From Vulcanimicrobiales bacterium (GTDB lineage Bacteria; Vulcanimicrobiota; Vulcanimicrobiia; Vulcanimicrobiales; Vulcanimicrobiaceae): 35,395 nucleotides of DNA. The DNA is taken from positions 1 through 35,395 of the forward strand of contig JBBQQR010000022.1 in assembly GCA_038215615.1 (NCBI GenBank), in the 5' to 3' direction. The notes below the pieces were generated by a model. The model saw nothing but the letters and a program-made list of their open reading frames with translations. It ran no database searches and was not told the origin of the DNA. The position numbers and the translations under genes were made by a program. Shown here one piece after another: positions 3,732 through 35,395 of this stretch. Every line of letters starts with the position of its first letter. Positions within the stretch are counted from its first letter, which is position 1.

Positions 3732-3734
3732 CCC

Positions 3735-7148: not shown

Positions 7149-7208
7149 TCGGCTCTCGCGAAGCCGCCGAATCTTCTCGCCAACCATAATGGCTAACTCC
7201 TTGGCGTT
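7149..7208 (-). pseudogene. Possible N-terminal remnant of an XRE-family regulator
   Basis: AKELAIMVGEKIRRLRESR resembles XRE helix 1; the similarity stops abruptly. Confidence 0.3.
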
Positions 7209-7321
7209 CGGTTTAGTATTGAAGCACTTATGCCTTCGAAAACGGCCCAGGCGCCCTTAAGATACACTTTGTATTATTCACTGACGTAAACGTAGCAAGT
7301 ACGACTACCATAAAGCCTCGG

Positions 7322-7447
7322 CTATTTTCCGACAGACTCTAATGATTTTATGCCGATGGCGATAAGGATTATCAGAAGAACCAGAACTAGGATGCCGACG
7401 ATCGCCATCCAGGCCATCATGGGCCACATCATCCACGGCGACATCAT
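7322..7447 (-). CDS. 41-aa Met-rich single-pass membrane protein; last gene of the efflux operon, absent from the ORF track
   Basis: ATGA overlap with the upstream stop; MMSPWMMWPMMAWMAIVGILVLVLLIILIAIGIKSLESVGK. Confidence 0.65.
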   Translation of the reverse strand: MMSPWMMWPMMAWMAIVGILVLVLLIILIAIGIKSLESVGK

Positions 7448-7842
7448 TTGACCTGCTTACTGAACCTTGCGGTCGTAGTCTTCCCATTCGATATCGCAGT
7501 TACGCTGAACACCCACTGCGTCGCGTAATTAAGATTGGTTTGCGAAACATACGTTCCGTCGCCTTTGTCCCTTGCAGTGAGCGTGGGTGCGGTCATGGTC
7601 ATCTTCGGCATGCTCGGCGCGATTGTCACCGCTGCGCCGCGCAAGGGGTTGCCGTTGCGTTCCTTCAGCATTATTGTGATCGCTTCGGGACCTTGTTTGG
7701 GCGGGTCGGGCGAAAAAACTGCAGCGATGCTCACGCTATTGCTTTGGACAGTCTGCGCGCCGCCATTTTTGGAACTTCTGTTTCCTCCGCATGCCCCGAG
7801 ACCGAGTGTCGCAATGATGAGAAGCAGGGCCAATCGATTCAT
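7444..7842 (-). CDS. YtkA/FixH-like lipoprotein
   Basis: Lipobox LGAC; PDPPKQG, GAAVT..PSMPKM, GDGTY, W.F.V are YtkA-like features. Confidence 0.8.
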   Translation of the reverse strand: MNRLALLLIIATLGLGACGGNRSSKNGGAQTVQSNSVSIAAVFSPDPPKQGPEAITIMLKERNGNPLRGAAVTIAPSMPKMTMTAPTLTARDKGDGTYVSQTNLNYATQWVFSVTAISNGKTTTARFSKQVK

Positions 7843-7857
7843 CGGGAATTCCTTTCG

Positions 7858-12100: not shown

Positions 12101-12301
12101 GAAATACGTCTCCACCTCTTGCGGCGCATACCCCGGCGTCATGGTCACGACGGCGATTAGCGGACTTTGCACGTACGGCATCATGCGCGTCGGCAAGACA
12201 TAGAGGGCCGATGCGATCGCCGCGATGACCAACGCAAAATAAAACGTAAAGACTGCAAATGGATTGCGGATTGCCCACGCGGCGATGCTACGATCGTTCA
12301 C
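9128..12301 (-). CDS. RND efflux transporter permease (AcrB/CusA/CzcA superfamily)
   Basis: 1057 aa; PQEVE..FSKPIEE, LVDDSIVV, SLTLTP, NAILL, RLSPILMT, ST.LTLFVIP. Confidence 0.95.
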   Translation of the reverse strand: MNDRSIAAWAIRNPFAVFTFYFALVIAAIASALYVLPTRMMPYVQSPLIAVVTMTPGYAPQEVETYFSKPIEERVTDLKGVRFVRSISQQGLSIVTLQFPYGYDIQRALVDTQQLVQQAQADLPYDRANLKPSYVVPVDPLNTPVLQLAVTGSGWDPVQLRQFIANDVVDALKTVPGVQQAIVFGGRQRQLQVVADRAAAASYGLSLTDIRDAIDRQNVSRSGGVVTNATSEYEIRGGQRVQSPADVVDYPIKTLGGRTIYVHDVATATDGPAEQRQVYRFNGNDAVELSIIQNPDASSPQVIAAVMQRLQQVAQRLPGLQFTPAYDNSRFVSDLKRNMFEELLIGVLLAGLVLLIFLEDVSATAIVLTAIPTCLALAVLAFAPLQLSINSSTLVGLLLAIGRLVDDSIVVIHSVHRHLAMGKTPVRAAVDGTMEVVLPIAAATGVMILAVVPLLTSGGITQIMFVGLVWPIIFALLASLAVSLTLTPLLATYLFHGRDAVRPPWRTRLDAAVFRVLAPLRMQRVRLENGYRQGLDWALRNRAIVLGGAALMTYIGLQLFPFIGSEMMPLADTGQAYAFLETTPGTSFAATSAKASAFERLLLAQPEVQRVSAEVGEQTANGYITGQAMNGVNDASYLITFMPKEQRRRSIWQIMDAVYGQMIQTVPGIRRLALKEMGSDVMASNDAPVDLLITGPNLRSLHDIADKAAALASRAPGLVQVSTSSAMQQPQEVINVDRTMASQIGLSPEQVDEQAYYAMHGGNTTGFYNPENVRHTTILIRYASAERSTPMDLRYVQIVGADGQIVPLSAIATIRQTDAPTLIERDGLRRSVSVLGYYRKGSRGEMTLFNDAEMAALAQIPLPQGYSIEMRGDMTEMMQSFARLLNAIKIAILFIFLLLVAQFRSFLQPLVMLLAIPLQLFGIFAGLLLAHQSFSTVSILGIVVANGMAVSNAILLLDLIVRKRREGLERKDAILWAGPVRLSPILMTTIVSLIVLAPVAFFPKTGVDAYSPLATVIIGGVAVSTVLTLFVIPVLYDVLDEFFAQRRRVIAVEQVDA

Positions 12302-14079
12302 GGTGAAGCCTGCGTGACTGCCTGCCCCTCGATCAGCAAAGCGGCGCCGTCCGTGACTATCAACGCGCCGCGCGGAATCGCACCTGACACGATGGCCGTC
12401 GTTCCGTCGTTGGACAACACGCGCACCGCAACGGAATGCGCCGTTCCGTCACGATCGATCCAAATTCGTGGGTTCATCGTTCCGCCGAGCACGGCGGCGG
12501 CCGGCACCGGGATGCCGCCCCGTTGCACGCGCGGGCCAACATAAATCCTAACGTTGACGAATCCGCCGGGCTGCACGGCCCGACCGGTATTTCGCACGAT
12601 CGCTTCGACGAGGGCCGTGTGCGTTTGCGGATCGGCAACCGGCGAGAGGGAGCTGACGCGGCCGTGCACGACCGAACCGTCCGCCATGGTCGCATCGAGC
12701 GGGTCTCCGACCTGCACGCGCGGTAGGTCCGTTTGCGAGACGTTCGCTTGAACGCGCAGCTCGTCGAGCACCGCAATGCGCGCGATCACCGTACCGGCTT
12801 GAACATAGCTTCCTGGATCCACCAGTCGCTTAACCACGACGCCGTCATCCGGCGCCGTGATCGATCGGTACGACGCAATCGTTGCCTGCGTCTGTGCCTC
12901 GCTTGCCGCTTGGCTATACTGGGCTCGCGCCTGGTCGACCGACGCGGCTGCATCCGACGCTTTGATGACGGCGTTGCGTAGCGCAGCTTGCGCCGACGCG
13001 TCCTGCGCGACTTCATCCTGATATTCTTGCTGCGAGACGGCGCCTTCGCGTAGGAGCATCCGTTCGCGAGTGATCTCCTGCGACCAGTATTGCGCCGCGC
13101 GTTGCTTTGCCGCAATGTCATTCTGCGCCATGCGCACGTCGTTGGGGGCATGGTGCGCCGCTTCGATCTCTGCGGCCGCTGCGGCCGCCCGCGCAGCATC
13201 GGCGGTGCTGCCGAGTTCGGATGCCTGGAGAAAGGCGATCTGCTCGCCGGCTCGCACGCGATCGCCCGTGTACACCGTAAAGTCTTGCAGAATGCCGCTG
13301 ACTCGCGCCGCCACATCCTGCATCAGGTACGGCGAAACCGTGCCCGGCGCGAGAACGGTCTGCGTCGACTCTTTCTGCGTTCCGACACGGATGGTGCGAA
13401 CCGCCACCGGCGCACTGCCCGCAACGTTTGCCATCGTGGTCATGTCCATCGTCGGCGCCGTGTAGCGTGATTGCGCGATCGCAAGCACCACGATCGCGAC
13501 GACTGCCACCGCGCCGAGCGCGAGCACAACCGGACGGCGATCGCGCTGCAAAACGAAATATCCGACGATGACCAAGATCAAGAGCGCGAAGAACGCCGTT
13601 TCCCACGGCAACGGGTTGCCGGCGCTCATGCCGGCAATTGGCGCATTTTGCGTTTTTGAAGTAATTGCGGTTGTCGTCGAAGCACTTGTACCGACGTCGT
13701 AGCGAAACGTCGCCGAACCGTCTAACGCACCCGTAAATGCAATCTGGACCGCCCATTGCGACGCCATGCCTAGAGTCGCACTGAACCGCCACGCGGTTGC
13801 GGAAGTGCGTGTCGCAAAGCCTTGCGGGCCCGTCATGTTCATCGAGGGCATTACGGTTGCAAAACGCACCGTCGCATGATCGAGCACGGACAGAGGCTCC
13901 CCGCTGACACGAACGGTGAAATCATTCGATCCGACACGCGGTGGGTCGGGCGAAACGCCGAGCGTTACTTGCGCAGATCTTCCGACACTCTGCGACAGGG
14001 GCGCCGCCGACGCAATGGCCGACGGAAGTGCCAAGGCGCTTGGCAGTATCGCGCATAAAAAAAACAGTCGCCGGATCAT
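12298..14079 (-). CDS. RND periplasmic adaptor fused to an N-terminal YtkA/FixH-like domain
   Basis: ATG 14079 overlaps the M56 stop. Signal peptide, PDPPRVG..MPSMNM domain, two TM helices, then MFP motifs (VSG..V..GDRVRAGE; ITAPDDGVV; DPQTHT; PGGFV). Confidence 0.9.
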   Translation of the reverse strand: MIRRLFFLCAILPSALALPSAIASAAPLSQSVGRSAQVTLGVSPDPPRVGSNDFTVRVSGEPLSVLDHATVRFATVMPSMNMTGPQGFATRTSATAWRFSATLGMASQWAVQIAFTGALDGSATFRYDVGTSASTTTAITSKTQNAPIAGMSAGNPLPWETAFFALLILVIVGYFVLQRDRRPVVLALGAVAVVAIVVLAIAQSRYTAPTMDMTTMANVAGSAPVAVRTIRVGTQKESTQTVLAPGTVSPYLMQDVAARVSGILQDFTVYTGDRVRAGEQIAFLQASELGSTADAARAAAAAAEIEAAHHAPNDVRMAQNDIAAKQRAAQYWSQEITRERMLLREGAVSQQEYQDEVAQDASAQAALRNAVIKASDAAASVDQARAQYSQAASEAQTQATIASYRSITAPDDGVVVKRLVDPGSYVQAGTVIARIAVLDELRVQANVSQTDLPRVQVGDPLDATMADGSVVHGRVSSLSPVADPQTHTALVEAIVRNTGRAVQPGGFVNVRIYVGPRVQRGGIPVPAAAVLGGTMNPRIWIDRDGTAHSVAVRVLSNDGTTAIVSGAIPRGALIVTDGAALLIEGQAVTQASP

Positions 14080-15041
14080 GAGAGGGAACCCATCTGCGAA
14101 CAATGCACGGCGAATGCGGCGAGCTGCGGTACTGCAACACTGGCCACCATTGTAAGCGCGAGCGCCGACGCAACCGCAAAGCGCATCGTGCTGCTCACCG
14201 GTTTGGGCGCAGAAGGCCGAAGCAACGCATCCAGGCGGCCGCGTACCATCTCAATATCGGCAAATAGCGAAGCGTGCGCCGGCGCGAGAATCGGACGCGC
14301 GACGCGCAACAGTGCGCCGGCGAGTTCGGTGCGCTCGACGTACGACAGTGCGTATTCGTCGGCGCAAAATTCGCGCGATCGCCGATAAAGCCGCACCAAA
14401 TTGTCGACAGAAAGCGGCAGCAGATCAGCAAAAAAGTGCACGGCCGGCGCGATCCGATGATCGTGCTGCAGATAATGCGCGCGCTCGTGATGGAGCGCCG
14501 CGCGCAGTTCCTCGTCGCTCAAGCGTTCGAGTGCGTTCGTCGACACATATACTGCGGGACGGCGCGTGCCGGCAAACATGACGACCGGCCGTTCCGAATC
14601 GGGCAATTCATAGACCGCAACGCCGATTTCGGCCCCAAAGCGCGCGAGCCGGTGCGACGGCGAATACGCTTGAGCGACCAGCGCATTCATTTCACGCTCG
14701 CGGCGTAGGGCAAGCAAAAGCGACCGAAGGATTGTCCCAACCATCAGCGCAGAGAGTCCACCGAACAGGACCCGGCCTGGGATCGTTTGTAGGCACGGCG
14801 ATGATGCACTGCTGGACAGTCCGTACGCAACCAATGTAATGAAGATGAAGCCCGGTGTGATCGCAGCAGCGGCCGCAAGGGCCGATTGCCATCGCCGATC
14901 GTTCTCCATGCTCACAATCTCGGGAGTGAGGCGACGCACAATGAACCATGCTATAACCGGAATAGTGAGCGCCGCGCAAAGCGATGTAAAAACTGCGCCC
15001 GACGCGATGCAGGACTGAAGCGTCTGCAGCAACGCGTTCAT
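14076..15041 (-). CDS. M56 (BlaR1-type) membrane zinc metallopeptidase without penicillin-binding domain
   Basis: HHERAH (HExxH), REFCADEYA, LA.ALLR; N-terminal TM helices; coupled to blaI by ATGA. Confidence 0.88.
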   Translation of the reverse strand: MNALLQTLQSCIASGAVFTSLCAALTIPVIAWFIVRRLTPEIVSMENDRRWQSALAAAAAITPGFIFITLVAYGLSSSASSPCLQTIPGRVLFGGLSALMVGTILRSLLLALRREREMNALVAQAYSPSHRLARFGAEIGVAVYELPDSERPVVMFAGTRRPAVYVSTNALERLSDEELRAALHHERAHYLQHDHRIAPAVHFFADLLPLSVDNLVRLYRRSREFCADEYALSYVERTELAGALLRVARPILAPAHASLFADIEMVRGRLDALLRPSAPKPVSSTMRFAVASALALTMVASVAVPQLAAFAVHCSQMGSLS

Positions 15042-15454
15042 CGCCGACGGCCCTGCCGCTGCTCTTGCAGCAACCGTTCGAACTCTTCGAGTGAAGCATC
15101 ATCATGCGCAAGTTGCTGCGCCATGTGCGCGAGCAGCGGATTGCGATAATTGCGCATCAGCCCGGTGAGTACGCCACCAACTACGCGACGCTCGAATTCA
15201 TCCCGGCTCACCGTCGCTGAAAACGCGTTCGCTTTGCCGAGTGGCTGTTTTTTGGCGTAACCCTTCGAAACCAGGGTATTGAGTGTGGTCTTCGCTGAGG
15301 AATAATGGACGGGATGTCCCCCCCGCTCGAGCCGCTCGACCACCTGGCCGACCGTCGCAGAAGCATCGATATCCCAAAGCGCGTTCAGGACAACGCTTTC
15401 AAGGGGACCGAGCACCGAGGCACTACCGGGCGTTTCAGGGCGGAAGACATGCAT
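15038..15454 (-). CDS. BlaI/MecI/CopY-family repressor
   Basis: LGPLE..VLNALW, TVGQV, YSS.KTTLNTL..KG, SRDEF; contains no Cys. Confidence 0.9.
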   Translation of the reverse strand: MHVFRPETPGSASVLGPLESVVLNALWDIDASATVGQVVERLERGGHPVHYSSAKTTLNTLVSKGYAKKQPLGKANAFSATVSRDEFERRVVGGVLTGLMRNYRNPLLAHMAQQLAHDDASLEEFERLLQEQRQGRRR

Positions 15455-15539
15455 GTGCCAACCACCTTAGCACTCCGCTCCTCGACGTCCTTCAGAGCCC
15501 TATGGTAATCATAACCACCACGCCGAGCGAGTGTCCAAA

Positions 15540-16103
15540 TTACGGTACGTTTCCAAAAAAGTGTGGAATCGCATGACTGGCAATTAGCCACGCCCCAAGT
15601 AATATGAAGGCGACGCCCGCGAGAAGACCGGCGCGTCGAGATGCTTTTGCGCCAAGTTTCGCACCGAAAGAAATACCAGCATAACCGAAGATGAACGCTT
15701 GCGCCGCGATCGCGAGGAGCACCCAGGGAATCGGAAGACCTTCCGTTGCCAAAGGAAAACCGATAGCAACCTCATCGATGGATACCGCAAGTCCTGCCAG
15801 CATCATTGCGCGCAGTGTTGTGAACATGAGGCGTTCCGCCTCTTCGACCGTTTCGGCGGCTTCCTTGAACGCATGGAGCCCTAGCCCGATAAGGATTACT
15901 CCGCCGGCATATTCGGCGACGTTTTGAAAAGTATGTGAGATCAGGGATCCAAATAACACGCCAATGAGCGGCATTGTGCCTTCGGCGACCGCAAAAACAA
16001 TGGCCGGTCTAACGGGTTTGATACCACGCAACCCAACCGCAATGGCGATGGCGAGGGTATCGAGGCCTAACGGCAGCACAAAGGCCGCTATCTTTAAGAG
16101 CAC
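15540..16103 (-). CDS. mntP: MntP-family manganese efflux pump
   Basis: LGLDTLAIAIAVG, AEGTMPLIG, AVSIDEVAIG; six TM segments. Confidence 0.85.
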   Translation of the reverse strand: MLLKIAAFVLPLGLDTLAIAIAVGLRGIKPVRPAIVFAVAEGTMPLIGVLFGSLISHTFQNVAEYAGGVILIGLGLHAFKEAAETVEEAERLMFTTLRAMMLAGLAVSIDEVAIGFPLATEGLPIPWVLLAIAAQAFIFGYAGISFGAKLGAKASRRAGLLAGVAFILLGAWLIASHAIPHFFGNVP

Positions 16104-16141
16104 TCCAAGACTATATCCTATGGACCCCGGCTACCCAGCCG

Positions 16142-16561
16142 TCAGGCAACACTCGGTAAGAAAGTCCCATTCTTGGACGATTGGTTACTCGGAAGTGGTT
16201 GCAATTTGGTTGTAGTCAACCACAAACGATAAGGGCTCCCAGTAACCTTTGACGACCTCGTGTTCTGATTTCGTCTGCGTCGGCAACCGCTGGCAACTTT
16301 CGGTGACCTTTGATCGCGGCATTTATAGACCGCCTTCGTGAGATGAGCATAATGTTCGAATGGGGCCTCTGGCGGCACGACTGCCTTTAGCGTGGCCTGT
16401 TGCACTGTGTAGCTGGCGGTTTCGGCATTACCGGCCATCGGTATCACAGCCCGCAGCGCGGAGTCAGGCGTCTCAGCCTCCACCGTGTACGAAAGTTGCA
16501 AATCGACGATGAATCGGCTTGCGGGTTTTTCCAAATGTGAGCGGAGAGATCTGTTATTCAT
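16142..16561 (-). CDS. Hypothetical protein, probably chimeric or truncated
   Basis: The first ~80 aa look protein-like, the tail does not. The ATG overlaps the VOC pseudogene stop. Confidence 0.3.
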   Translation of the reverse strand: MNNRSLRSHLEKPASRFIVDLQLSYTVEAETPDSALRAVIPMAGNAETASYTVQQATLKAVVPPEAPFEHYAHLTKAVYKCRDQRSPKVASGCRRRRNQNTRSSKVTGSPYRLWLTTTKLQPLPSNQSSKNGTFLPSVA

Positions 16562-16944
16562 GGCATACTACTTCAAGGCGATAGCCATCAGGATCGTTCA
16601 CGAATGCACAAAGTACTTCTCTCCATATTCCGGATGCAACGCCGGCGCGGCGTCCTCGATTGCTCCGCTAGCCATTGCCGCGGCGTAGGACGCGATCACG
16701 ACCTCCCGGGTCGTTGCAAAGAAAGCGATATGTGATCGTTGGCTGGTGCCTACGGTTTTGGATGATTCAAGTTTGATCGCAAAAGCTTCATCGGTCTCCC
16801 CCGGCGCGCCGTATCCCGCCGCATGATCATCGCTCCAAACGCGAACGCGTTCGATCGGCGCAAGAATAGCATCGTAGAACGCAATAGATCGCGCAAGATT
16901 TGAAACGCCAATTGAGAGGTGGTCGAGGACCTTGTTTCATGCAT
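16554..16944 (-). pseudogene. VOC/glyoxalase-family pseudogene with two frameshifts
   Basis: Manual translation: VLDHLSIGVSNLARSIAFYDAIL...HIAF...HPEYGEKYF /shift/ AFVNDPDGYRLEVVCHE*. The GGAGG-ATG start is out of frame with the body. Confidence 0.85.
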
Positions 16945-16999
16945 CGCCTCCAATGCACCGGGAGTACTCGACCAGCAATCGAACACCCGTTCGCTGTGT

Positions 17000-17160
17000 A
17001 CACCTCGGCCAGCTTTCGCCGCAGAGGCGCTCTCGTACGCGTGCAGATAAACCTCCTCGTATTTCAGTGAGCGCCAGAAACGCTCGATGAAAACATTATC
17101 GCGCCAGCAACCCTTGCTCGTGAAGCTCATTCGCGAGGAGCACGGCATCGCGCTCAGCAT
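17000..17160 (-). mobile_element. IS3-family transposase fragment
   Basis: KGCWRDNVFIERFWRSLKYEEVYLHAYES matches the catalytic-Glu region of IS3 OrfB; the rest is absent. Confidence 0.8.
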
Positions 17161-17503
17161 GGGCCGAGGTCAGGGTTCAAGAGATGCAAGAGTAGAGGAG
17201 GAAATGCGTCTTAATTGGCCCCCCGAAAGGCTGATTGATCTAGTGCTCAATAAGGGCCGCAGTTCGCAAAAACACGCACGAAAAGTCGAAAAAAGTGAAC
17301 GCTCGTGGAACCAAGTTCGCGCGACCTGCAGTATCCCAGGTTCGACTTGAACTATGGTTCGCTAAGGCAGCTCATGCAGTGACCCATTCGCGCGCGTGGG
17401 GAAGCCGCTCCGGCGACATTTGCGCAATTGGGTAAGTCGATTTTCCCCGAAAAAGGGAACCCATCCGAGGGCGGCTCCCTACTCATCGCCTCTACGCAAA
17501 ATT

Positions 17504-17526
17504 TGTGGCACCGTTGTGGCACCGAC
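17504..17526 (+). repeat. Putative integrase arm-binding sites (right)
   Basis: TGTGGCACCG-T-TGTGGCACCGAC, ~117 bp inside the right att core. Confidence 0.7.
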
Positions 17527-17642
17527 TCCGTGCTACGGGGCATTCTTAAATGACACAGAGCATCACGGTGACGTGTGCGAAACCCTCACGGGAGAGTACT
17601 TTGCGATACTCGACGCTACTCGTCGGCATCAACGTTTTCAGA

Positions 17643-17666
17643 TTCGATTCCCGTTGGCGCTACCAC
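17643..17666 (+). repeat. att core, tRNA-distal copy (tRNA-Glu 3' fragment)
   Basis: Exact 24-bp copy of 1108-1131. Confidence 0.92.
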
Positions 17667-17667
17667 C

Positions 17668-17694
17668 AAAGCTCGATAACCACGGGCTTTTTTT
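17668..17694 (+). terminator. Terminator-like hairpin, homologous to 1132-1159
   Basis: GCTCG-ATAACCA-CGGGC followed by T7. Confidence 0.5.
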
Positions 17695-17725
17695 GTTTGG
17701 AGCGATCGTTTTCTCTACCCATGAG

Positions 17726-18085
17726 TCACCACGTCTCTGCCCCGTTTATCAGTCCGGCGCCGAACACGGCAAAACCGGGCCGCAGCAGTAAGGCCCCCAC
17801 GAAAAACAAAACCCCGGCGCAAAAAATGAAGACCGAACGGCGCGCCAGATTTTCCCACCGCCACCGCACGTCGGTGAAGCGCGGAATCACGTGAAGCAGG
17901 ACGCTCGTTGCGGCGGTGGTTGCCGAGCCGAGGGCGACAACGTGGATCCACGCAATTGCCAAGAACCCGAGCGATGAAACCGAACCTGCTATCCCGACCC
18001 AGGCGAGAAGAAGCCACGATGCGCCGTACGAAAGCTGTGCGAAAATGAGTGCGCCGGGTGGAATCCAGTGCCGCCGATTGAACAT
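17726..18085 (-). pseudogene. 3'-truncated copy of the 412-aa membrane protein gene at 28539-29777
   Basis: Near-identical for ~113 aa, then NGAETW*. Confidence 0.85.
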
Positions 18086-18580
18086 GATTGCATCCTATCA
18101 TGCCCGTTGAAAGCCGTCTCTTCGTCAAAGCCAGCCTAGTCTGGCTCTGTGCTACTTTTGCAGTGGGCGCCGTACTGCTTGCCCTCAAAGCGCTCGGATT
18201 ATCGCTTCACTATGACCTTTCGATAGTTCATGCACATATGGGTTTCGTCGGCTGGCTGGTGAACCTGGTGATGGGCATCGCGCTGTGGTTTTTGCCGGTG
18301 AACCGTGAGCGGTTTCCGGAAAATCGCGGACGGTACCCGGCGGTGATCGTACGCTTTATTTTCGCCATGCTCAACATCGGTCTCGCGCTCCGAATCGCTT
18401 TCGAGCCGCTCGTCGACAAAGCGGGACCGACGCCTTTCTATTCGGCAATGCTGCTCGCGAGCGCGGTGCTGCAGCTCGCAGCGATCGTGCTATTTGCCGC
18501 TATCGCGTGGCTGCGCGTTCGGCTGGTTTAAGGGCCGCTTACTTAATAACGCGGAAAGTCATGTGCATCTTCCCGTGGCC
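17748..18580. repeat. ~830-bp direct repeat, copy 1 (copy 2 at 29440-30273)
   Basis: Constant 11,692-bp offset with one 1-bp indel near the end; roughly 90-95% identical by eye. Confidence 0.92.
18100..18531 (+). CDS. 143-aa four-TM protein with HAH..VGW motif (heme-copper oxidase subunit I/NnrS-like module), copy 1
   Basis: MPVESRLFVKASL...HAHMGFVGWLVNLVMG.A.WFLP; mostly synonymous differences from copy 2. Confidence 0.75.
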   Translation: MPVESRLFVKASLVWLCATFAVGAVLLALKALGLSLHYDLSIVHAHMGFVGWLVNLVMGIALWFLPVNRERFPENRGRYPAVIVRFIFAMLNIGLALRIAFEPLVDKAGPTPFYSAMLLASAVLQLAAIVLFAAIAWLRVRLV

Positions 18581-18895
18581 GATGCCACAGAAGATCGCGC
18601 AACGAGCGTCAAATGTTCCGACTTTTTGCGGCGTTACCATAATAGAAGTCGGCTTGCCGGTGATCGTTACGGTTTGAGTCAAACCGATCTGCGGCACCGT
18701 TATCCCGTGCGTGCCCTGCTTGCTGACGAGGGTCAGGCGAACGGGCTGTTTGACTTTGAGGACAACGACTGCCGGCGTGAAGGAGAAATTTCGGGCAGTA
18801 ATCGTCACGCTTTTGGGCTGCGTGCTTGCGCCGGCATATAACGGCGTAACCATTGCCATGGTGGCGAGACAGAAGATAGCGAGTGTGTGTTTCAT
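18539..18895 (-). CDS. Secreted cupredoxin with CuA-type ligand set
   Basis: Signal peptide; NFSFTP, HG, C-AIF-C-GIG-H-GK-M; AGGAG RBS. Confidence 0.88.
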   Translation of the reverse strand: MKHTLAIFCLATMAMVTPLYAGASTQPKSVTITARNFSFTPAVVVLKVKQPVRLTLVSKQGTHGITVPQIGLTQTVTITGKPTSIMVTPQKVGTFDARCAIFCGIGHGKMHMTFRVIK

Positions 18896-18979: not shown

Positions 18980-19132
18980 ATGGTAGAAGTCAAGCGCTTG
19001 AGATCGACAGTCGTCTATTCAAACGGTGTCATCAATGTGCGAGGCAACGGACGCGTGGCCCATCTCGTTATCGCTTCCACCGCGGCAACGGTGAACGGTA
19101 ATCCGTTTACTATGGATCAAAGGAACAGTTGA
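18980..19132 (+). pseudogene. 50-aa chimeric ORF containing a copper-amine-oxidase N-terminal (stalk)-like fragment
   Basis: GGAGG RBS; VVYSNGVINVRGNGRVAHLVIASTAATVNGNPFTMD; ends inside the duplicated hemerythrin 3' scrap. Confidence 0.4.
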
Positions 19133-19272
19133 TGAGTGGAGTCCCAGCCTAAGCTTCTTACGTTAGGTCGCACGACAGGAAACTCCGGGCGCACATCCCG
19201 ACCGCCGGAAGCAGAGTCACGGGCGAAGGACAGTTGCGCTACGACGTTTTGTTTAGCGAGGAAGCCGTCTAA
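19118..19272 (+). pseudogene. Remnant of the hemerythrin 3' end plus an internally deleted DUF488 gene
   Basis: 19118-19167 matches 35165-35214 at 49/50. 19171-19272 reads HDRKLRAHIPTAGSRVTGEGQLRYDV..., resembling DUF488 C-termini. Confidence 0.65.
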
Positions 19273-23182: not shown

Positions 23183-23245
23183 TTAAACCGTGCTTCATTT
23201 CGGGCGACGGCACCCGTTGCCCGAGCGTTGACGCTTTTTGGGCGT

Positions 23246-23352
23246 AGTGCTAAGTCGGTTGACACATGCATGTCTTCCGCCCTGAAACGCCCGGCACCGG
23301 CTCGGTGCTTGGTCCTCTTGAGAGCGCCGCACTGAACACCCTCATTTGGTAG
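23246..23352 (+). pseudogene. Promoter and first ~25 codons of a second blaI-like gene
   Basis: ATG 23266: MHVFRPETPGTGSVLGPLESAALNTLIW*, versus MHVFRPETPGSASVLGPLESVVLNALW at 15454; shared upstream AGTGCTAAG. Confidence 0.85.
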
Positions 23353-23650
23353 TTGCGTCGTGCCCGTCAGTTGTGGAAGCGCTGTCGGATTTTGTCAGCG
23401 CGTTGTAGGTGACCGCAATTACTGCGCCGGCGATCCCTCCGGCAAACGCGATCCAGATGATTCCGCCGAGGAACGTCCACGTGCCCATCCTCATTCCGGT
23501 ACCCATTCCCATTCCGTTTGGAAACGCATTTGCGTGCATGCCCGATATCGAGAGCTGCATCGGCAGAACGAGGACTACAGCAATGGCGAGTGACCCGAGC
23601 GCAAAGCCAATGGCTAACGCAAGGGGCTTCAGCTCAAATCTGGATTGCAT
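23342..23650 (-). CDS. Two-TM membrane protein with a Met/Gly-rich loop
   Basis: AAGGAG RBS; loop GMHANAFPNGMGMGTGMRMG; ends IAVTYNAL. Confidence 0.75.
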   Translation of the reverse strand: MQSRFELKPLALAIGFALGSLAIAVVLVLPMQLSISGMHANAFPNGMGMGTGMRMGTWTFLGGIIWIAFAGGIAGAVIAVTYNALTKSDSASTTDGHDATTK

Positions 23651-23694: not shown

Positions 23695-25305
23695 TTAGTG
23701 GATTTGGGTGGAGATGTACAAGGCAATATCGTGGAGGTCACGTTCGGACATTTTCCAACGCGGCATCACCGGGCTCAGCGTATCGCCGTTTTCATCGACT
23801 CCCGTCGAAATCGATCGCTCGAAAAGTGCAAGCGTCCAGGGCGTCTTTGACATTTTCGTAGAGCCCATGGAGCCCGCCTGATCTAGCATGTGGGCGTTGG
23901 ACCCAAGTTTTGCACTTATTGCTCCATCTGCGAGTAGCACGCCACCGGCGCCGTCGGGACCGTGGCAAACTGCGCAACTTTGATAAAATCGCGACGGGGT
24001 AGCCGTCGTGATTTGCGCGCCGTTCAAGTCCTTACCCGTAAGGTAAATCGAGCGCCCGTTCGCAATCGCTCCGGAATCAGCGGTCGTGGACGTGGGCATC
24101 GGCATGGCGGTCGCCGTTGCTCCGGGCATTGGCATGGCGGTCGGCATTGTTCTAGGCGGGAACCGATCACGATACCACGGCCCGGCCCAAAGCAGCTGGT
24201 ATTTTAGCGCCGGTCCCTTGCCGACGCTTGCGAGATCTTCGACTGTTAAGATGATGTTCGGTCTTACGTTGAAGGCGGCAGCGAGTATATAGTTGACTGT
24301 CAAGTTGCCTAGGCCGTCGTCGGTATGTTCGTACCGAAGATCGACGTGCAGCCACGACTGCGGAGCGTAGATCGTCTCGAACGAGACGCCGTGGCTGTTC
24401 GCCGACGGCGACGCACCGTCGTTGGGATTATTGTCTTGGCCCGCGATTCCCATCGCGATGAGTTCGTAGCGATCACCGCTGTACGAGGCAAGCGCCGCCT
24501 CACGCGTGTAGCGATCTTTCGCACCCGATGGGAGCGGATATGAACCGCTCAGGCCAGCTATACCACCGGACCATTTCGATTCGGGGGACAAGTACTGTAC
24601 CGAACCCGTCCAGGCCGTGCCCTCGCCGGCGCTACGAAAAGCACGCTCAACTGGCCCAGTCCCTTCCAAATATGACACGTTGCCTATCAATCCAAGATGT
24701 CCGAATTGCGTGTACGATGCGCCCCAACGGTTGTCGGCGATCGTCGAACCGTTCAATCCAACCTGCAAGCTCGCGAACCCATAGCCTGAGAGCGAGAGCG
24801 ACTGGCTCGTCCATGGCGCAAAGATTGGCGTCGGGAACTTTCCGATTTGCACACTGCCATTTCCGTTGGAGATTCCGTTGTAGGCGACCCACACCTGATC
24901 GACCGCCTTCGCGGGGAACCCTCCAGTTACGACAGGGACTGATGCGAAATACGAAACGTTGGGCCCGATGAAACCACCGGATAGGAACTGCACAAGCGCG
25001 CTGTGGATCGCCGGAAGCATCGGATCGGGCTGATTCGATGCATTGGCGGTAACTTCCAACGCCACCGGGAGGCTACGATTCTGCATCATTTGTAGGTGCT
25101 TATTGAGGCCTCTGGAAAAATTTGTCATCAAGACGTAACGGCCGTAACTATTGAGATGCGGCACCGCCGTGTGGCAGAGGGCGCAGTTAACGCCGCCTTG
25201 TCCGTTTGCAAATACAGGGATCGCCAACGCTGACTTTGGAGCGCCCAATGACCACGCGAGAAATATCGTCGTAGAGAGCGCCGGTATCCAAGTGCACTTC
25301 CTCAA
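23695..25305 (-). CDS. Cyc2-like cytochrome c-porin fusion with an additional C-terminal c-type cytochrome domain
   Basis: Signal peptide ALA/IPVF, N-terminal CALCH..P.LN.YGR, beta-strand-rich middle, Met/Pro/Thr linker, C-terminal CAVCH ... MPRW. Confidence 0.75.
   Translation of the reverse strand: MRKCTWIPALSTTIFLAWSLGAPKSALAIPVFANGQGGVNCALCHTAVPHLNSYGRYVLMTNFSRGLNKHLQMMQNRSLPVALEVTANASNQPDPMLPAIHSALVQFLSGGFIGPNVSYFASVPVVTGGFPAKAVDQVWVAYNGISNGNGSVQIGKFPTPIFAPWTSQSLSLSGYGFASLQVGLNGSTIADNRWGASYTQFGHLGLIGNVSYLEGTGPVERAFRSAGEGTAWTGSVQYLSPESKWSGGIAGLSGSYPLPSGAKDRYTREAALASYSGDRYELIAMGIAGQDNNPNDGASPSANSHGVSFETIYAPQSWLHVDLRYEHTDDGLGNLTVNYILAAAFNVRPNIILTVEDLASVGKGPALKYQLLWAGPWYRDRFPPRTMPTAMPMPGATATAMPMPTSTTADSGAIANGRSIYLTGKDLNGAQITTATPSRFYQSCAVCHGPDGAGGVLLADGAISAKLGSNAHMLDQAGSMGSTKMSKTPWTLALFERSISTGVDENGDTLSPVMPRWKMSERDLHDIALYISTQIH
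24094..24147. repeat. 30-bp-period repeat encoding the TAMPMP linker
   Basis: GGGCAT(C/T)GGCATGGCGGTCG at 24094 and 24124. Confidence 0.7.
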
Positions 25306-25358: not shown

Positions 25359-25763
25359 TTAAGCGGCTTCCCCAATGGCAGCCAGCAGTCGAGAGTTGAC
25401 CTCTTCGGCAACCCCACCGAGCCTGTCGTTCCCTACAACGGACATCATGGTATGCGCATTAATTGCGCTGATGAACGTCTTGCCATCCTTGCGACGAACC
25501 GTGACGTTGCACGGCAGAAGTAAACCCAACTGTTCTTCCATCTGCAGGGCTTCATGAGCGAACTGTGGATTGCAAGCGCCTAGTATCAGATAGGGCTCGC
25601 GCTCGACACCAAGCTTTTGCTTAAGCGTTGCCGCGACATCGATCTCGGATAGCACCCCGAAACCCTGTTTCTTGAGTGTCTCTGTGACACTCGCCACGGC
25701 CTGATCAAACGGCTTGGCCGACTCGATCGAAAACCCATACCGCTCGTGCACTATGTGAGCCAT
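25359..25763 (-). CDS. DUF302 domain protein
   Basis: GFGVLSEIDV..TLK.KLG, YLILGACNP, GLLLPCNV; ATG 25763. Confidence 0.9.
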   Translation of the reverse strand: MAHIVHERYGFSIESAKPFDQAVASVTETLKKQGFGVLSEIDVAATLKQKLGVEREPYLILGACNPQFAHEALQMEEQLGLLLPCNVTVRRKDGKTFISAINAHTMMSVVGNDRLGGVAEEVNSRLLAAIGEAA

Positions 25764-25891: not shown

Positions 25892-26392
25892 GTGGTCCTC
25901 ATCGGATTCCTTGTGGCTGCAGCGGCGATTCTCGCGGTCATGGCTGCGGTCGCGAGAACGACAATCGAGCCGGCGGCCGGGCAAGCAAATGTTACTTCCA
26001 TGGGTTATCGCTTGCGAAAGGGTTGGCTGTGGGCGCTCGCCGCTGCAGCTGTGGTTGCGCTTGCGATTTCGATACCATCGTTTCCCTATGGAAAACCAAC
26101 GACGCTTTCCGGGAAGCACTACACGGTCGTCGCATCTCAATACAGTTTTGAACTTCCGCCCGCCGTGCCGGTTGGCAGGCCCGTCGTTTTCGACGTGACC
26201 TCCAAAGATGTGAATCACGGTTTTGGCATCTACGACCCGCAAGGACGCCTCGTTGCGCAGGTTCAGGCGATGCCTGATTACGTGAATCATCTACCGATGC
26301 GGTTTAGCGTGAAAGGTCATTATCTGGTGCGTTGTCTTGAATACTGCGGCATAGCGCACGCGGCAATGCAAGGAGCTTTCGACGTAAGATGA
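25892..26392 (+). CDS. Heme-copper oxidase superfamily subunit II with CuA site (NorS-like)
   Basis: Two TM helices; DVNHGF, QAMP, C-L-E-Y-C-G-I-A-H-A-A-M. Confidence 0.9.
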   Translation: MVLIGFLVAAAAILAVMAAVARTTIEPAAGQANVTSMGYRLRKGWLWALAAAAVVALAISIPSFPYGKPTTLSGKHYTVVASQYSFELPPAVPVGRPVVFDVTSKDVNHGFGIYDPQGRLVAQVQAMPDYVNHLPMRFSVKGHYLVRCLEYCGIAHAAMQGAFDVR

Positions 26393-27834
26393 CGGGCTCG
26401 CGGCGGATCATGTGGGCGTTCCTATCTACGGGTATTGCCATTTTCGGTCTCATGACGCTGGTCGGGTTCGCAATGCGTATCGAGCAGGCGCAATGGGTTG
26501 CCTACGATCCCGGCGCGTTTTATGCATTGATGACGCTGCACGGTTCGGGCATGATTGTCGCCTTAGCGCTCTGCGGAATGGGCGGCTTGTGGTTCATCAT
26601 GGATCGCGAGCGACCGATGAATCAGGGGCTTGCGTGGTCCGCGTACGCGTTGATCGTGATCGGTGTCGTCGCAGTAATTCTGAGTGTGTTTCCCGGACGG
26701 TTTGGAGCGGCGTGGACGTTTCTCTTCCCGTTGCCATTCATCGGTGCGACGTGGCCGAGTTGGGCGACCGGAGCATTCCTTATCGGCGTTGCGCTCATCA
26801 TGCTCGGCTGGACCGTCTATTGCGTGCAGCTGCTCGGGTGCGTCCTTATGAAGTACGGCGGCCTACGCGGCGCGACGGGCTGGGATCTCGTTTTCCACCA
26901 CGACGCGTTCGTTGCATCCGGGCGCCCGGAGCCGCCGCCTGCGGCGTTCGCCGCGCTCATCACGGCTGTGGATGGACTCTTTGCGGTGGCCGGCGGCATG
27001 CTCGTCGGCGTTGCGCTCATCATCCACTGGATCGATCCAACGGTTGCCATCGATCCGCTGTGGGCAAAAAACCTCACGTATTTGTTCGGCCACACGTTCG
27101 CGAACCTTACAATTTATATGGCGATTGCCTTCGTTTATGTTGCACTTCCGCGGTACGCAAATCGCGAATGGCACACTTCGCCGGTTCTCGCGATCGCGTG
27201 GTGGGGAACGCTCCTGTTCGTCGCGACCGCGTATTTCCATCACCTGTATATGGATTTCGTGCAGCCGCGCGGCCTTCAGTACGTTGGCGAAGTCGCGTCG
27301 TATCTTGCTGCGTTTCCACCTGCCGTCGTTACGATCTTCGGCGGCGCACTATTAGTGTATCGTTCGAATTTGCGCTGGACGATGGGTTCGATGTTCATGT
27401 ACGCGGGACTCGTGGGATGGCTCATCGGCGGGGTCGGAGCGCTGATCGACGCGACCGTTCCAATCAATTCCTCACTGCATAACACGTTGTGGGTGCCCGC
27501 GCACTTCCATACGTATCTGCTCGAAGGCGTCACGTTGTTCATCCTCGGTTGGATTTTTGCGGATCTGGAAACGCGATCCGGGCTGGTGAGCTCGCTCTTA
27601 ACGCGATGGATGGTCGGCATAGGAATTTTCGGCGGCGGCGCTCTGCTGTTGTTGGGCTGGTACGTTGCAGGCGCAGCGTCCGTTCCGAGACGCTACGCGA
27701 TGCAGCCATCGCCGGGCCCCGCAATCTCCGCGTGGGCATCGGTTGGAGCGATCCTCCTCATATTTGGATTGGTGCTCTGCCTAGCCGAAGCGGTGAGGCT
27801 GGCGCGGGCGCGCAACGCGGAGCCGGTTGTATGA
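26389..27834 (+). CDS. Heme-copper oxidase superfamily subunit I, sNOR/NorY-like (putative NO reductase)
   Basis: All six His present (MTLHG, FGH, HH, HFH); helix VI reads GHTFAN rather than GHPxVY; ATGA-coupled to subunit II. Confidence 0.85.
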   Translation: MTGSRRIMWAFLSTGIAIFGLMTLVGFAMRIEQAQWVAYDPGAFYALMTLHGSGMIVALALCGMGGLWFIMDRERPMNQGLAWSAYALIVIGVVAVILSVFPGRFGAAWTFLFPLPFIGATWPSWATGAFLIGVALIMLGWTVYCVQLLGCVLMKYGGLRGATGWDLVFHHDAFVASGRPEPPPAAFAALITAVDGLFAVAGGMLVGVALIIHWIDPTVAIDPLWAKNLTYLFGHTFANLTIYMAIAFVYVALPRYANREWHTSPVLAIAWWGTLLFVATAYFHHLYMDFVQPRGLQYVGEVASYLAAFPPAVVTIFGGALLVYRSNLRWTMGSMFMYAGLVGWLIGGVGALIDATVPINSSLHNTLWVPAHFHTYLLEGVTLFILGWIFADLETRSGLVSSLLTRWMVGIGIFGGGALLLLGWYVAGAASVPRRYAMQPSPGPAISAWASVGAILLIFGLVLCLAEAVRLARARNAEPVV

Positions 27835-28547
27835 CGCTGCGCAAACTCATTGTCATCGTATCCGCGCTTGCCGCGCTCGTTTTTTCCGCGATGCCGGTGA
27901 TTACGGGCGCTCGCGACATCGGCGTGCATCAACATCACCTCGATCACGCCGTGCTGATGCTGCTCGGCGCGATCGCGGGGCTCGCATTGTATTCGGGCAG
28001 CAGCGATCGCGAATCTCCGCCGTGGCTGTGGGTTGCGGTGCTCTGTCCTTTCATCGCAATGCTGCTTATGTCTCCATCGCTTTATTCATTGGTGGATCAA
28101 ACCCCGTGGCTGCATTCGTTCGACCACATCGTCTTTGTGGTGCTCGCGGTGATGACGGCATATGCCGGCCAGCGATACGTGCGCGGCGTCGGCTGGGCCA
28201 CCGCGCTGATGCTCGAATCGATGGCGATAGTTGCAGCTTTCGGATATGGTGTCGCTCCCGCAGTCACCGTTCTTTCGCCAAGCGCGGCCGTAACACAGCG
28301 AACCGAACCTTCCGGAGATGTCGCGCACGGCAGGGTGCTCTTCGCGCAGAACTGTGCCGTGTGTCACGGTGCTCGCGGCGAGGGTGGTGAGGGGCCGCCG
28401 CTCAAGAACGAAGTATCGCGCAAGGATTTCGCCCAAGCGCAAGCGTGGATAAAGAAACCCGCGCCGCCGATGCCGGCGTTGTATCCCAATCCGCTGAGCG
28501 CAAAAGATGTCGCCGACGTCGCCGCTTTCGTCGAATCCCTAAAGTAG
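27831..28547 (+). CDS. His-rich membrane domain (CtaG/DUF1404-like) fused to cytochrome c
   Basis: ATG 27831 overlaps the upstream stop; HQHHLDH, WLHSFDH, C-terminal CAVCHG...MP. Confidence 0.8.
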   Translation: MTLRKLIVIVSALAALVFSAMPVITGARDIGVHQHHLDHAVLMLLGAIAGLALYSGSSDRESPPWLWVAVLCPFIAMLLMSPSLYSLVDQTPWLHSFDHIVFVVLAVMTAYAGQRYVRGVGWATALMLESMAIVAAFGYGVAPAVTVLSPSAAVTQRTEPSGDVAHGRVLFAQNCAVCHGARGEGGEGPPLKNEVSRKDFAQAQAWIKKPAPPMPALYPNPLSAKDVADVAAFVESLK

Positions 28548-29777
28548 CGAGATATTCGCCTGTTTCATCGCTCTCGCTCGCGCGACTACAAGATTGCACA
28601 TCATCGCGAGCCAGCCGATCATGCCGACGACGGCACCGGCGCTGACAGCGGCTGCGTTCTGCGCGAGCAGCCCAAAAGCCACGCTCGCGATTGCGAGTTG
28701 AAAAGTCGCGAATGATACCCACGAGAGGCGCGAGTCGAGCACTTCTTGCGGACGCGTTTCATCATCCTCACCGCGATAAGCCGTAAGCAGCACGCGTACA
28801 CCGATGTGATAGACATGCGCGTTGATCGCCTGTCCGATCCAGCCCGCCAACAGAACGAAACCGTAGGCGAGCTGCCATGAATTGCCGGCCAGCGTTCCCG
28901 CGCCCAGCCCCAAGCCGCAAAGCAACCACACGATCGCGGCGAGCAAGAATGCTTGCGAAGCGGTGCGCGGGCCGGCAGCGCGTCGTAGGACATCGAGGAG
29001 ATCGAGAGCATAGACGAGCGCCGCACAACCGAAGAGGATCGCGCCGGGCCAGATAAGCCAAGAGATGCCGCCAAGGCCGATCGCCAGCAGCGGAACGCCA
29101 ATCACCGTGAACGAGCCGACGGCGATGTGCGCCGCCGGAAAACGCGATCGTTCGCCGGAAATTGGACGCACCGTTCGAACTGAAACACCGAATATCAACA
29201 GCGAAAGCCATCCGAGCATTCCAAGATTCGCGTGCGCCGCCGGCAGCGACGCGATCCAGGGCGGCGTCACGTATCCCGAGATCGCGACGCTCAGCGCGAA
29301 ACCCAAGAGCGCCGTCACGACGAGGAACAGCAGCGTTATCAATAGCGCGCGCGCGATGGCGCGCTCCATACGCTCTCCGCGAAATGCCTCGACTAGTGTG
29401 GCAACAGCGGCTATCGTATATGCGAGCAACGCGAACGCGATCAATCCCGCCCCGAACACCGCAAGGCCGGGTCGCAGCAGTGCGGCCCCCACGAAAAGCA
29501 AAACCCCGGCGCAAAAAATGAAGACCGACCGGCGAGCCAGATTCTCCAATCGCCACCGCACGTCGGCGAAACGCGGAATCACGTGGAGCAGGACGCTCAT
29601 CGCGGCTGTGGCTGCCCAGCCGAGGGCCACAGCGTGGATCCATGCAATTGCTAAGAATCCAAGCGATGAAACCGAACCCGCTATCGCTGCCCAGATAAGA
29701 AGAAGCCACGACGCGCCGTGCGAAAGCTGCGCGAAGATGAGTGCGCCGGGTGGAATCCAGTGCCGCCGATTGAACAT
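28539..29777 (-). CDS. ~12-TM membrane protein with repeated H...LGW modules (NnrS/heme-copper oxidase subunit I-like)
   Basis: WIHAVALGW, AHANLGMLGW, YGFVLLAGW..HVYH; 412 aa. Confidence 0.75.
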   Translation of the reverse strand: MFNRRHWIPPGALIFAQLSHGASWLLLIWAAIAGSVSSLGFLAIAWIHAVALGWAATAAMSVLLHVIPRFADVRWRLENLARRSVFIFCAGVLLFVGAALLRPGLAVFGAGLIAFALLAYTIAAVATLVEAFRGERMERAIARALLITLLFLVVTALLGFALSVAISGYVTPPWIASLPAAHANLGMLGWLSLLIFGVSVRTVRPISGERSRFPAAHIAVGSFTVIGVPLLAIGLGGISWLIWPGAILFGCAALVYALDLLDVLRRAAGPRTASQAFLLAAIVWLLCGLGLGAGTLAGNSWQLAYGFVLLAGWIGQAINAHVYHIGVRVLLTAYRGEDDETRPQEVLDSRLSWVSFATFQLAIASVAFGLLAQNAAAVSAGAVVGMIGWLAMMCNLVVARARAMKQANISLL

Positions 29778-30273
29778 GATTGCATCCTATCATGCCCGTT
29801 GAAAGCCGTCTCTTCGTCAAAGCCAGCCTAGTCTGGCTCAGTGCGACTTTTGCCGTGGGCGCCGTACTGCTGGCCCTCAAAGCGCTCGGATTATCGCTTC
29901 ACTATGACCTTTCGATAGTTCATGCACATATGGGTTTCGTCGGCTGGCTGGTGAACTTGGTGATGGGCGTCGCGCTCTGGTTTTTGCCGGTGAACCGAGA
30001 GAAGTTTCCGGAAAATCGCGGACGGTACCCGGCGGTGACCGTCCGCTTCATTTTCGCCATGCTCAACATCGGCCTCGTGCTGCGCATCGCCTTTGAGCCG
30101 CTCGTCGACAAAGCGGGACCAACGCCTTTCTATTCGGCAATGCTGCTCGCGAGCGCGGTGCTGCAGCTCGCAGCGATCGTGCTATTTGCCGCTATCGCGT
30201 GGCTGCGCGTTCGGCAGGTTTAAGGGCCGCTTACTTAATAACGCGGAAAAGTCATGTGCATCTTCCCGTGGCC
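29440..30273. repeat. ~830-bp direct repeat, copy 2; includes a 3' scrap of the cupredoxin gene (30231-30273)
   Basis: Matches 17748-18580. Confidence 0.92.
29792..30223 (+). CDS. 143-aa four-TM HAH..VGW protein, copy 2
   Basis: Paralog of 18100-18531 with ~6 aa differences. Confidence 0.75.
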   Translation: MPVESRLFVKASLVWLSATFAVGAVLLALKALGLSLHYDLSIVHAHMGFVGWLVNLVMGVALWFLPVNREKFPENRGRYPAVTVRFIFAMLNIGLVLRIAFEPLVDKAGPTPFYSAMLLASAVLQLAAIVLFAAIAWLRVRQV

Positions 30274-34728: not shown

Positions 34729-35199
34729 ATGGATGCGATTATGTTATTGAAAGCCGACCACGCGAAAGTCGGCGGCCTTCTGGAGGAAATCGACCGTTTG
34801 AGCGAGTCCGCGCACGCAGAGCGCCGCGAAATCTTTGAAAAGATCGACCACGAGCTCAGGGTGCATTCTAAAATCGAAGAAACGATCTTCTATCCAGCGT
34901 TGAAAAAGAAAGCTAACACCGACAAGGATGACGGCGCGAAGCAGGAAGTACTCGAGGCGTACGAAGAGCACGCCAACGTTAAGAACATGTTAGAAAAACT
35001 CGAAGAGACGGATGCAACCGACGAAACGTACAACGCGAAGCTGCAAGTCCTGAGCGAGCTTATCAAGCACCACGTCCATGAAGAAGAACACGAAATGTTC
35101 AAGGAAGCGCGCAGCCTCATGGACGAGACAGAACTCGAAGAACTCGGCAAGGAATTAGCGCGCGCAAAGGAACAGTTGATGAGTGGAGCCCCAGCCTAA
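34729..35199 (+). CDS. Hemerythrin/HHE-domain protein
   Basis: LLKADH, H...EETIFYP, EEH, HHVHEEE..MF; GGGAG RBS. Confidence 0.9.
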   Translation: MDAIMLLKADHAKVGGLLEEIDRLSESAHAERREIFEKIDHELRVHSKIEETIFYPALKKKANTDKDDGAKQEVLEAYEEHANVKNMLEKLEETDATDETYNAKLQVLSELIKHHVHEEEHEMFKEARSLMDETELEELGKELARAKEQLMSGAPA

Positions 35200-35395
35200 G
35201 CTTCTTACGTTAGGGCACGGAACCGCAACCGCGGACGAACTTGCGGCCCTGATACGCGATGCCGGCATCGAGCTGATCGTGGACGTCCGGACGGTGCCCA
35301 AGAGCCGCCGGCATCCCCACTTCTGGCGCGAAGCAATGGAAGTCTGGGTTCCGGAACGCAGTGGGAGCGCATATCTCTGGCAACCGGCGCTCGGC
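35183..35395 (+). CDS. DUF488-family protein, runs off the window end
   Basis: Manual translation from GTG 35183: LLTLGHG...LIVDVRTVPKSRRHPHF...Y.W..ALG. Confidence 0.8.
   Translation, partial: MEPQPKLLTLGHGTATADELAALIRDAGIELIVDVRTVPKSRRHPHFWREAMEVWVPERSGSAYLWQPALG

Follow-up and report, generated by a model that had tools for sequence, protein, structure and literature searches.

Cyc2 and its relatives are outer-membrane cytochrome-porins. In the passages of Keffer et al. 2021 (PMC8406198) covered here, they are marked by the motif AXPXFAR[Q/K][T/Y], a CXXCH and a PXL four residues downstream; the same passages leave the function of divergent homologues open and caution that Fe oxidation should not be assigned to distant ones. 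Porin O is given as the best template for Cyc2 in the excerpts of a review (PMC13741234). For the tested Cyc2TAG1_1, the consulted parts of PMC13692758 describe an acidic lumen and state that its periplasmic partner is still to be found, as holds for most Cyc2 proteins. Eremiobacterota are called predicted iron oxidisers in the covered portion of PMC13594681. Two proteins of Eremiobacterota MAG 15 (k99_46640 and k99_99254) are named Cyc2-like in a 2021 supplement (PMC8357290, File S3), so that the family, including a two-heme member, is already in print under that label; in the published tree of this source, as far as it was available, a long branch (1.06) beside Sulfuro_AR holds two relatives. 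No published description of a two-heme Cyc2 was found in titles, abstract openings and passages; supplements outside this set may hold one.

The window (the whole stretch of DNA that was analysed, 35,395 nucleotides from a Vulcanimicrobiales bacterium) encodes a cytochrome-porin of this kind whose chain carries a second CxxCH behind the barrel region. The gene, its parts and its nearest neighbors are listed below, with the evidence for each in parentheses.

23695..25305, minus strand: two-heme Cyc2-like cytochrome-porin, 536 aa (ORF, Pfam, AlphaFold2 model, fold match)
25222..25305, minus strand: probable Sec signal peptide, residues 1-28, ending ALA (sequence; model helix 6-19)
25066..25221, minus strand: Cyc2-type heme domain, residues 29-80, IPVFANGQ...CALCH...PHL (alignment)
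24181..25062, minus strand: predicted 16-strand beta-barrel, residues 82-375 (AlphaFold2, Foldseek, OprP match)
24076..24174, minus strand: low-complexity Pro/Thr/Ala/Met linker, residues 378-410 (length and Met content vary)
23698..24075, minus strand: tethered class I-type cytochrome c, here called cytochrome 2, residues 411-536 (PF00034; alignment)
23848..23892, minus strand: His/Met-rich loop inside cytochrome 2, HMLDQAGSMGSTKMS, residues 472-486 (alignment)
25359..25763, minus strand: DUF302 protein, upstream on the same strand (Pfam PF03625, E 7e-26)
23342..23650, minus strand: small two-helix membrane protein with a Met/Gly loop, downstream (weak DUF5676, below cut-off)
25892..28547, plus strand: divergent operon of CuA subunit II, heme-copper subunit I and a membrane cytochrome c (Pfam)

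The open reading frame starts with TTG and runs for 536 codons without a stop. Residues 1-28, judged from the sequence, are a probable signal peptide, and the mature protein begins IPVFANGQGGVNCALCH at residue 29, directly after ALA. There follow IPVFANGQGGVNCALCHTAVPHL, the barrel region, the linker with MPTAMPMPGATATAMPMP, where 30 nt are duplicated in tandem (24094-24153), and finally a CAVCH...MPRW domain at the C-terminus. The original prediction had recognized the mature start, the beta region, the linker and the CAVCH...MP cytochrome from the letters alone, and the ORF, Pfam and the AlphaFold2 model bear this observation out. Because at least two CxxCH motifs are carried by 72 of the 97 homologues, the two-heme fusion is not an assembly artefact; in addition, one contig covers 23265-25029 without differences, although the sequencing run is possibly the window's own source. 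A scan of the locus for promoters and terminators gave a chance-level result.

The C-terminal domain has the early CxxCH (CAVCH, 444-448), the distal Met-Pro (M514-P) and the terminal helix of class I cytochromes c, and it passes Pfam PF00034 at 23.6 bits against a cut-off of 21.3. M514 is invariant (35/35), and model helices lie at 408-423 and 521-534. When residues 405-536 were used to search the ESM Atlas, solely generic cytochrome c clusters were matched, and the domain folded by itself reached a pLDDT of 44. A sequence search of the PDB turned up no solved structure related to the barrel, and for cytochrome 2 no more than a weak match, to 8gy3_A.

At the N-terminus, the first heme motif reads CALCHTAVPHL, with C41, C44, H45, P49 and L51 invariant in 80 alignment rows; H70 (kept in 94%) and M73 (91%) are candidate sixth ligands of heme 1. 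The AxPxFA part of the Cyc2 motif is present in AIPVFANGQ, and NGQ replaces R[QK][TY], so that the strict Cyc2 motif fails here; PxFAR[QK][TY] occurs in 0 of the 97 homologues. CXXCH and PXL are both found and a 16-strand OprO/OprP-like barrel is predicted, whereas the monoheme character of Cyc2 is lost with the second CxxCH. Profile comparison by hhalign nevertheless aligned this barrel family with PxFAR[QK][TY] barrels over 330 columns (probability 99.9%, E 8e-36), a match that is partly circular, since the canonical-motif profile (A3) was drawn from distant hits to the profile of the present family (A2), and that is to canonical-motif barrels, none of them a biochemically tested Cyc2 sequence. 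A single CxxCH is present in every one of 118 further canonical-type barrels (112 with the strict motif), of which 116 have F or Y as their last residue. As judged from these alignments, the protein is a Cyc2 homologue beyond the strict Cyc2 definition.

The barrel has no Pfam or NCBIfam match. The AlphaFold2 model (80-row alignment, mean pLDDT 73, falling below 50 in the heme-1 region and the Met loop) places 16 strands across residues 82-375; Foldseek matches are 16-strand porins (E ~1e-10), and the best VIA match is OprP 2o4v (Z 24.0, rmsd 2.7, 276 aligned), in line with the barrel that had been anticipated. Strand connections alternate between long (5-33 aa, mean ~12) and short (2-6 aa), as in porins, which argues that both termini lie on the periplasmic side; in the model, the N-terminal heme domain and the exit of strand 16 are predicted to share one side, conventionally the periplasm. 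D136, D191, R193, D264, R268, D291, E310, H320, D322, R324, E326, D330 and E356 are conserved in the barrel, and strand 13 shows an H-x-D-x-R-x-E stripe. With 21 Asp/Glu, 14 K/R, a pI of 5.1 and 2 Met, neither of them conserved above 74%, the barrel bears little resemblance to a Cu(I)/Ag(I) channel. What speaks for iron is the homology to Cyc2, together with the acidity of the barrel and its conserved Asp/Glu.

Cytochrome 2 has free relatives. It is 48% identical to a lipoprotein-type cytochrome encoded alone in the host genome (G000:C9:36451-36987), and a second free copy of this type sits in locus L003. A single clade (support 0.999; 100 for 9 rows in a quick tree) unites the 35 barrels that carry this "long" cytochrome, and its sister is a barrel with a different, short cytochrome; unfused forms branch around both. 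Other barrels end in one or two short cytochromes, in a cytochrome plus YtkA-like domain, or in a CuA cupredoxin (P0103). Tails fall in three separate supported clades (SH-aLRT 95-100; quick tree, 44 of 126 rows), fused and unfused sister pairs in that tree include P0122/P0127 and P0105/P0104, and parsimony on the 126-row tree requires at least 8 tail changes, some of them caused by truncated records. Carriers (cytochromes, and once CuA itself) have thus been joined to barrels several separate times. In one further case, P0275, a canonical-motif barrel is joined to a cupredoxin/carboxypeptidase-regulatory protein; the junction contains a signal-peptide-like stretch and may be a read-through of two genes.

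The presence of a tail was scored against the neighboring genes in 84 fetched loci, three regions of the host genome and the window, after 7 partial pieces had been set aside, as well as 6 rows whose upstream sequence was shorter than 700 bases. A co-directional gene with a CuA motif immediately precedes 39 of 45 unfused barrels (at a distance of 62-313 bases) and 0 of 37 fused barrels, which is the new observation of this analysis; these counts are inflated by kinship, since 9 unfused and ~11 fused rows each represent one syntenic set, and three of the 37 fused rows are C-terminal pieces of frameshifted genes. Among the fused rows, one has a CuA gene 1.1 kb off with two genes in between; in three, a CuA motif occurs downstream or on the opposite strand. 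Note that genes were called with a home-made codon-model caller, by which some were missed or truncated. The pattern held in 40 regions fetched once the markers were fixed: 34 contain a copper-protein marker, against a background of 4-7% in the host genome, and these comprise 30 of CuA type (some perhaps oxidase subunit II) and 4 multicopper oxidases. In 7 of the 40, subunit II, subunit I (GHPLVY, Tyr kept), CuA and barrel follow on one strand, and triheme cytochromes adjoin barrels in four more. The seven rus-like oxidase-CuA-barrel operons are those of L070, L072-L074, L081, L083 and L085. A HiPIP gene (L040:3249-3509) lies directly upstream of a short-cytochrome fusion. In the window itself, 18539-18895 (minus strand) encodes a small secreted CuA-motif cupredoxin (CAIFCGIGHGKM), 4.8 kb from the barrel gene and of the same type as the gene preceding unfused barrels in relatives.

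The simplest reading of a CuA gene upstream of unfused but not of fused barrels is that CuA and tail do the same job, passing electrons on from heme 1 to a terminal oxidase, and most likely the tether replaces the separate periplasmic carrier of an inward electron path. We regard this tethered carrier in place of the CuA partner as the firmest result; it is common to the two readings with Fe(II) and with a non-iron donor that are set out below. The idea that the protein brings its own tethered periplasmic carrier, present in the original prediction, gains support from the topology, the 48% identical free cytochrome and the mutual exclusion with the CuA gene. Alternatively, the cytochrome might be a passenger that is exported with the porin and then cleaved or acts independently. 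A low-complexity linker that ranges from ~20 to 75 residues would suit this, as would a model (pTM 0.68) that fixes no docking pose. We give it very little weight, since different carriers were repeatedly joined at the same barrel end, the CuA neighbor is gone whenever a tail is present, and all 37 of the 37 longer proteins found with the cytochrome 2 domain are barrel fusions.

For the protein as a whole, we put at about an even chance the reading that it is an outer-membrane heme-porin with a built-in carrier that passes electrons inward, the donor probably being Fe(II). Both CxxCH motifs would attach a heme. Electrons would enter at heme 1 from a reductant outside the cell, probably Fe(II) in solution; heme 1 would pass them across the flexible linker to heme 2, and heme 2 would deliver them to inner-membrane heme-copper oxidases. 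The ancestral unit in the class would have been a two-gene pair, a small CuA cupredoxin and a one-heme barrel, often behind an oxygen reductase. Several lineages would then have swapped the separate carrier for a C-terminal fusion, and the present one would have taken a lipoprotein-type cytochrome as its tail and added Met-rich loops.

The host genome (G000) holds three heme-copper subunit I genes, BamA and one cytochrome c assembly gene. The oxidase operon beside the barrel gene (25892..28547) is a possible electron acceptor and is not a conserved neighbor. Its subunit I reads GHTFAN, lacking the active-site Tyr of H-x3-Y O2 reductases; since this adjacent oxidase is without the Tyr for O2 reduction and is not conserved, it argues against the inward-conduit reading. 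The Asn at the Tyr position is what we take to indicate an sNOR-like enzyme, and this tyrosine-less oxidase with a CuA subunit II is probably NO-reducing. Tyrosine-less heme-copper families are described in the covered part of PMC11214002.

Named homologues come mainly from Vulcanimicrobiota (Eremiobacterota). The A2 barrel profile matches 181 of 251 genomes of the phylum, with 1-6 matches per genome; 175 of the 181 genomes of the host class (three families) have a match (170 of 176 without the five unpublished genomes G237, G127, G245, G247 and G232, on which nothing else in the analysis depends), as do 5 of 69 elsewhere in the phylum. RuBisCO had no match in the host genome, whose marker completeness is 100%. 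Barrels in 175 of 181 class genomes, together with no RuBisCO match, form a distribution broader than iron lithotrophy predicts, and the motif change, the long branch and the class-wide spread speak against a dedicated iron role. In 16 genomes the match reaches about 400 bits or more, and five genomes of the same genus all stay at or below ~315 bits; since strong matches are sparse and none is in a same-genus genome, this gene copy was probably acquired.

These data bear on a related possibility, an inward conduit whose donor is not iron but reduced humics or quinones, Mn(II) or another soil reductant that aids low-oxygen heterotrophic respiration. The near-universal, multi-copy presence across the class and the divergent N-terminal motif fit it, and among the 71 neighbors scanned the association is with oxidases and not with iron genes (one VIT1, no iron permease). 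It is still rather unlikely, as every biochemically tested Cyc2 in the literature covered, in the portions available, oxidises Fe(II), and relatives come from acid-mine and tailings MAGs.

The direction of flow could also be reversed, with the tail cytochrome feeding heme 1 and surface Fe(III) or Cu(II) being reduced for uptake or redox balance. One Cyc2 homologue lies at -130 mV in the consulted part of PMC13692758, so that the fold by itself gives no direction. Partners co-encoded with terminal oxidases are CuA, HiPIP and His/Met cytochromes, and the scanned neighbors include no recurring quinol dehydrogenase or metal permease, both of which tell against outward flow; we consider it very unlikely. 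CuA, HiPIP and His/Met cytochromes are typically high-potential.

Some features of this subclade call for a separate discussion. Met-rich segments and copper-homeostasis neighbors are subclade-specific and are unexplained by iron oxidation. A rival reading takes the protein as a copper-handling device, in which the linker and the HMxDxM loop would catch periplasmic Cu(I), heme 2 would oxidise it, and the barrel would release Cu(II) or dump electrons, in the manner of CopA/CopB or CueO rather than of Cyc2. The linker was dropped as a conserved metal site in favor of the better conserved loop of cytochrome 2. Linker Met counts range from 0 to 10 in long-type proteins (none in 5/39, at least 4 in 19/39) and are 0-1 in 19 of 19 short-type proteins, a difference that favors the copper device. 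In the loop, M473 and D475 are invariant (35/35); in 38 of 41 parsed cases it measures 18-39 aa and contains 3-11 Met+His. Relatives extend it to long runs of MGS or MPG, and neither of the two free cytochromes has it. At L009:9174-9680, the loop is expanded to ~14 MGS/MSS repeats. The Met-rich loops added in this subclade may bind Cu(I), as the Met-rich domains of CueO recruit Cu(I) (PMC11494321, in part). Because the Met-rich parts would be periplasmic, any Cu(I) bound would arrive from inside and not via the pore.

Copper-type genes were counted within 4 kb: they are present in 14 of the 24 long-type loci and in 0 of the 9 short-type ones, and the corresponding count for the host genome is 83 of 2080 genes. 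CPC-motif P-type ATPases are found in L001, L006 and L028. A paralogue in the host genome (G000:C3; L045:3156-7467), a barrel with a short cytochrome and a YtkA-like domain, is followed by genes for a multicopper oxidase and an SO_0444-like permease, which also favors the copper device; its order of barrel, then oxidase recurs in L075-L077 and L086. DUF302, DUF305, DUF411 and DUF4396 are linked to copper. Against the copper device, the markers were picked from the same neighborhoods in which they were counted, 8 of the 14 positive loci belong to a single syntenic DUF305 set, and 10 of the 24 long-type loci have no marker within 8 kb (some of these loci being short). The Met-poor barrel counts against it as well, as does an RND/YtkA element in the window (1108-17697) that excludes the barrel gene. 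Overall, we hold the copper device to be unlikely.

The copper hint of the original prediction is accordingly carried by the cytochrome 2 loop and the genes near 14 of 24 subclade loci, and weakened by an acidic, Met-poor barrel and by a linker whose Met content varies from 0 to 10. That prediction had also read the two flanking genes as a sign of copper, which does not survive comparison: DUF302 adjoins the barrel gene in 2 of 44 loci (L002 and L006 only), the Met-loop gene does so in 3 of the 44 (L002, L003 and L006), and both were ruled out as fixed partners. A second host paralogue (G000:C5; L046:1682-4333) is a one-heme barrel after SCO-like/cupredoxin genes and beside a two-component system.

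Several other features of the surrounding DNA were recorded. An integrative element at 1108-17697, bounded by 55-nt repeats and placed at the 3' end of a tRNA-Glu gene, carries an integrase, a primase, an RND efflux operon with YtkA-like domains, a BlaI/CopY-type repressor with an M56 protein, and MntP. The barrel gene was ruled out as part of this element by the positions of its repeats (1108-1162 and 17643-17697). A 50-nt direct repeat (98%; 19118-19167 and 35165-35214), one copy of which is at the 3' end of a hemerythrin gene, bounds a 16-kb stretch that holds the barrel gene along with a catalase, the oxidase, an AlkA-like gene, a molybdo-oxidoreductase/cytochrome b fusion and a ferredoxin reductase. 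At 23242-23342 (plus strand), an 83% copy of the 5' end of a BlaI/CopY-type gene (15378-15478) abuts the end of the DUF302-barrel-Met-loop gene string. A divergent pair of membrane-protein genes with no clear Pfam family is duplicated (17726-18531 and 28539-30223), and its 412-aa gene is truncated in the left copy.

Since a natural fusion unites porin, heme and acceptor in a single chain, donor specificity and direction are measurable without guessing the partner, and the exclusion between CuA and tail indicates the partner of unfused barrels. The class is widespread in soil and acid drainage and has been labelled as iron oxidisers from cyc2-type hits; either Vulcanimicrobiia are overlooked electron scavengers, or these iron-oxidiser labels are wrong. 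A more far-reaching proposal, which we put forward as doubtful, is that nearly all Vulcanimicrobiia import external electrons via a heme-porin with a swappable carrier, here made into a fused two-heme wire with an expandable Met-rich loop that would also be a heme-based Cu(I) oxidase feeding copper detoxification into respiration.

Four described systems allow direct comparison. The fused cytochrome-porins Cyc2 of A. ferrooxidans, M. ferrooxydans (Cyc2PV-1) and G. bivora (Cyc2TAG1_1), and Cyt572 of Leptospirillum, have in common with this protein a signal peptide, a short CxxCH domain with AxPxFA and PxL, and a predicted 16-strand OprO/OprP-like barrel with acidic residues; unlike theirs, its chain continues past the barrel into a tethered second heme domain. 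The Cyc2-like proteins of Eremiobacterota MAG 15 are of the same family and include both heme forms, k99_46640 (L024) having two hemes and 61% identity to the present protein and k99_99254 (L029) one heme. PMC8357290 treats them as ordinary Fe(II) oxidase candidates, and the second heme, the CuA partner and the motif change go unmentioned in the parts of that source covered here. With CueO and PcoAB(CopAB), the protein shares Met-rich flexible segments near a redox centre and the coupling of an outer-membrane barrel to a redox protein; unlike them, it has c hemes and a Met-poor barrel that matches 16-strand porins. The rus operon chain of Acidithiobacillus (Cyc2, rusticyanin/Cup, Cyc1, heme-copper oxidase) offers a parallel in its logic of porin-heme, then carrier, then oxidase, and unfused relatives form oxidase-CuA-barrel operons. 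Unlike in the rus chain, the carrier of these relatives has the CuA-type motif CxxxCGxxHxxM and not a type 1 site, and in the present protein the carrier role would be taken over by the fused cytochrome.
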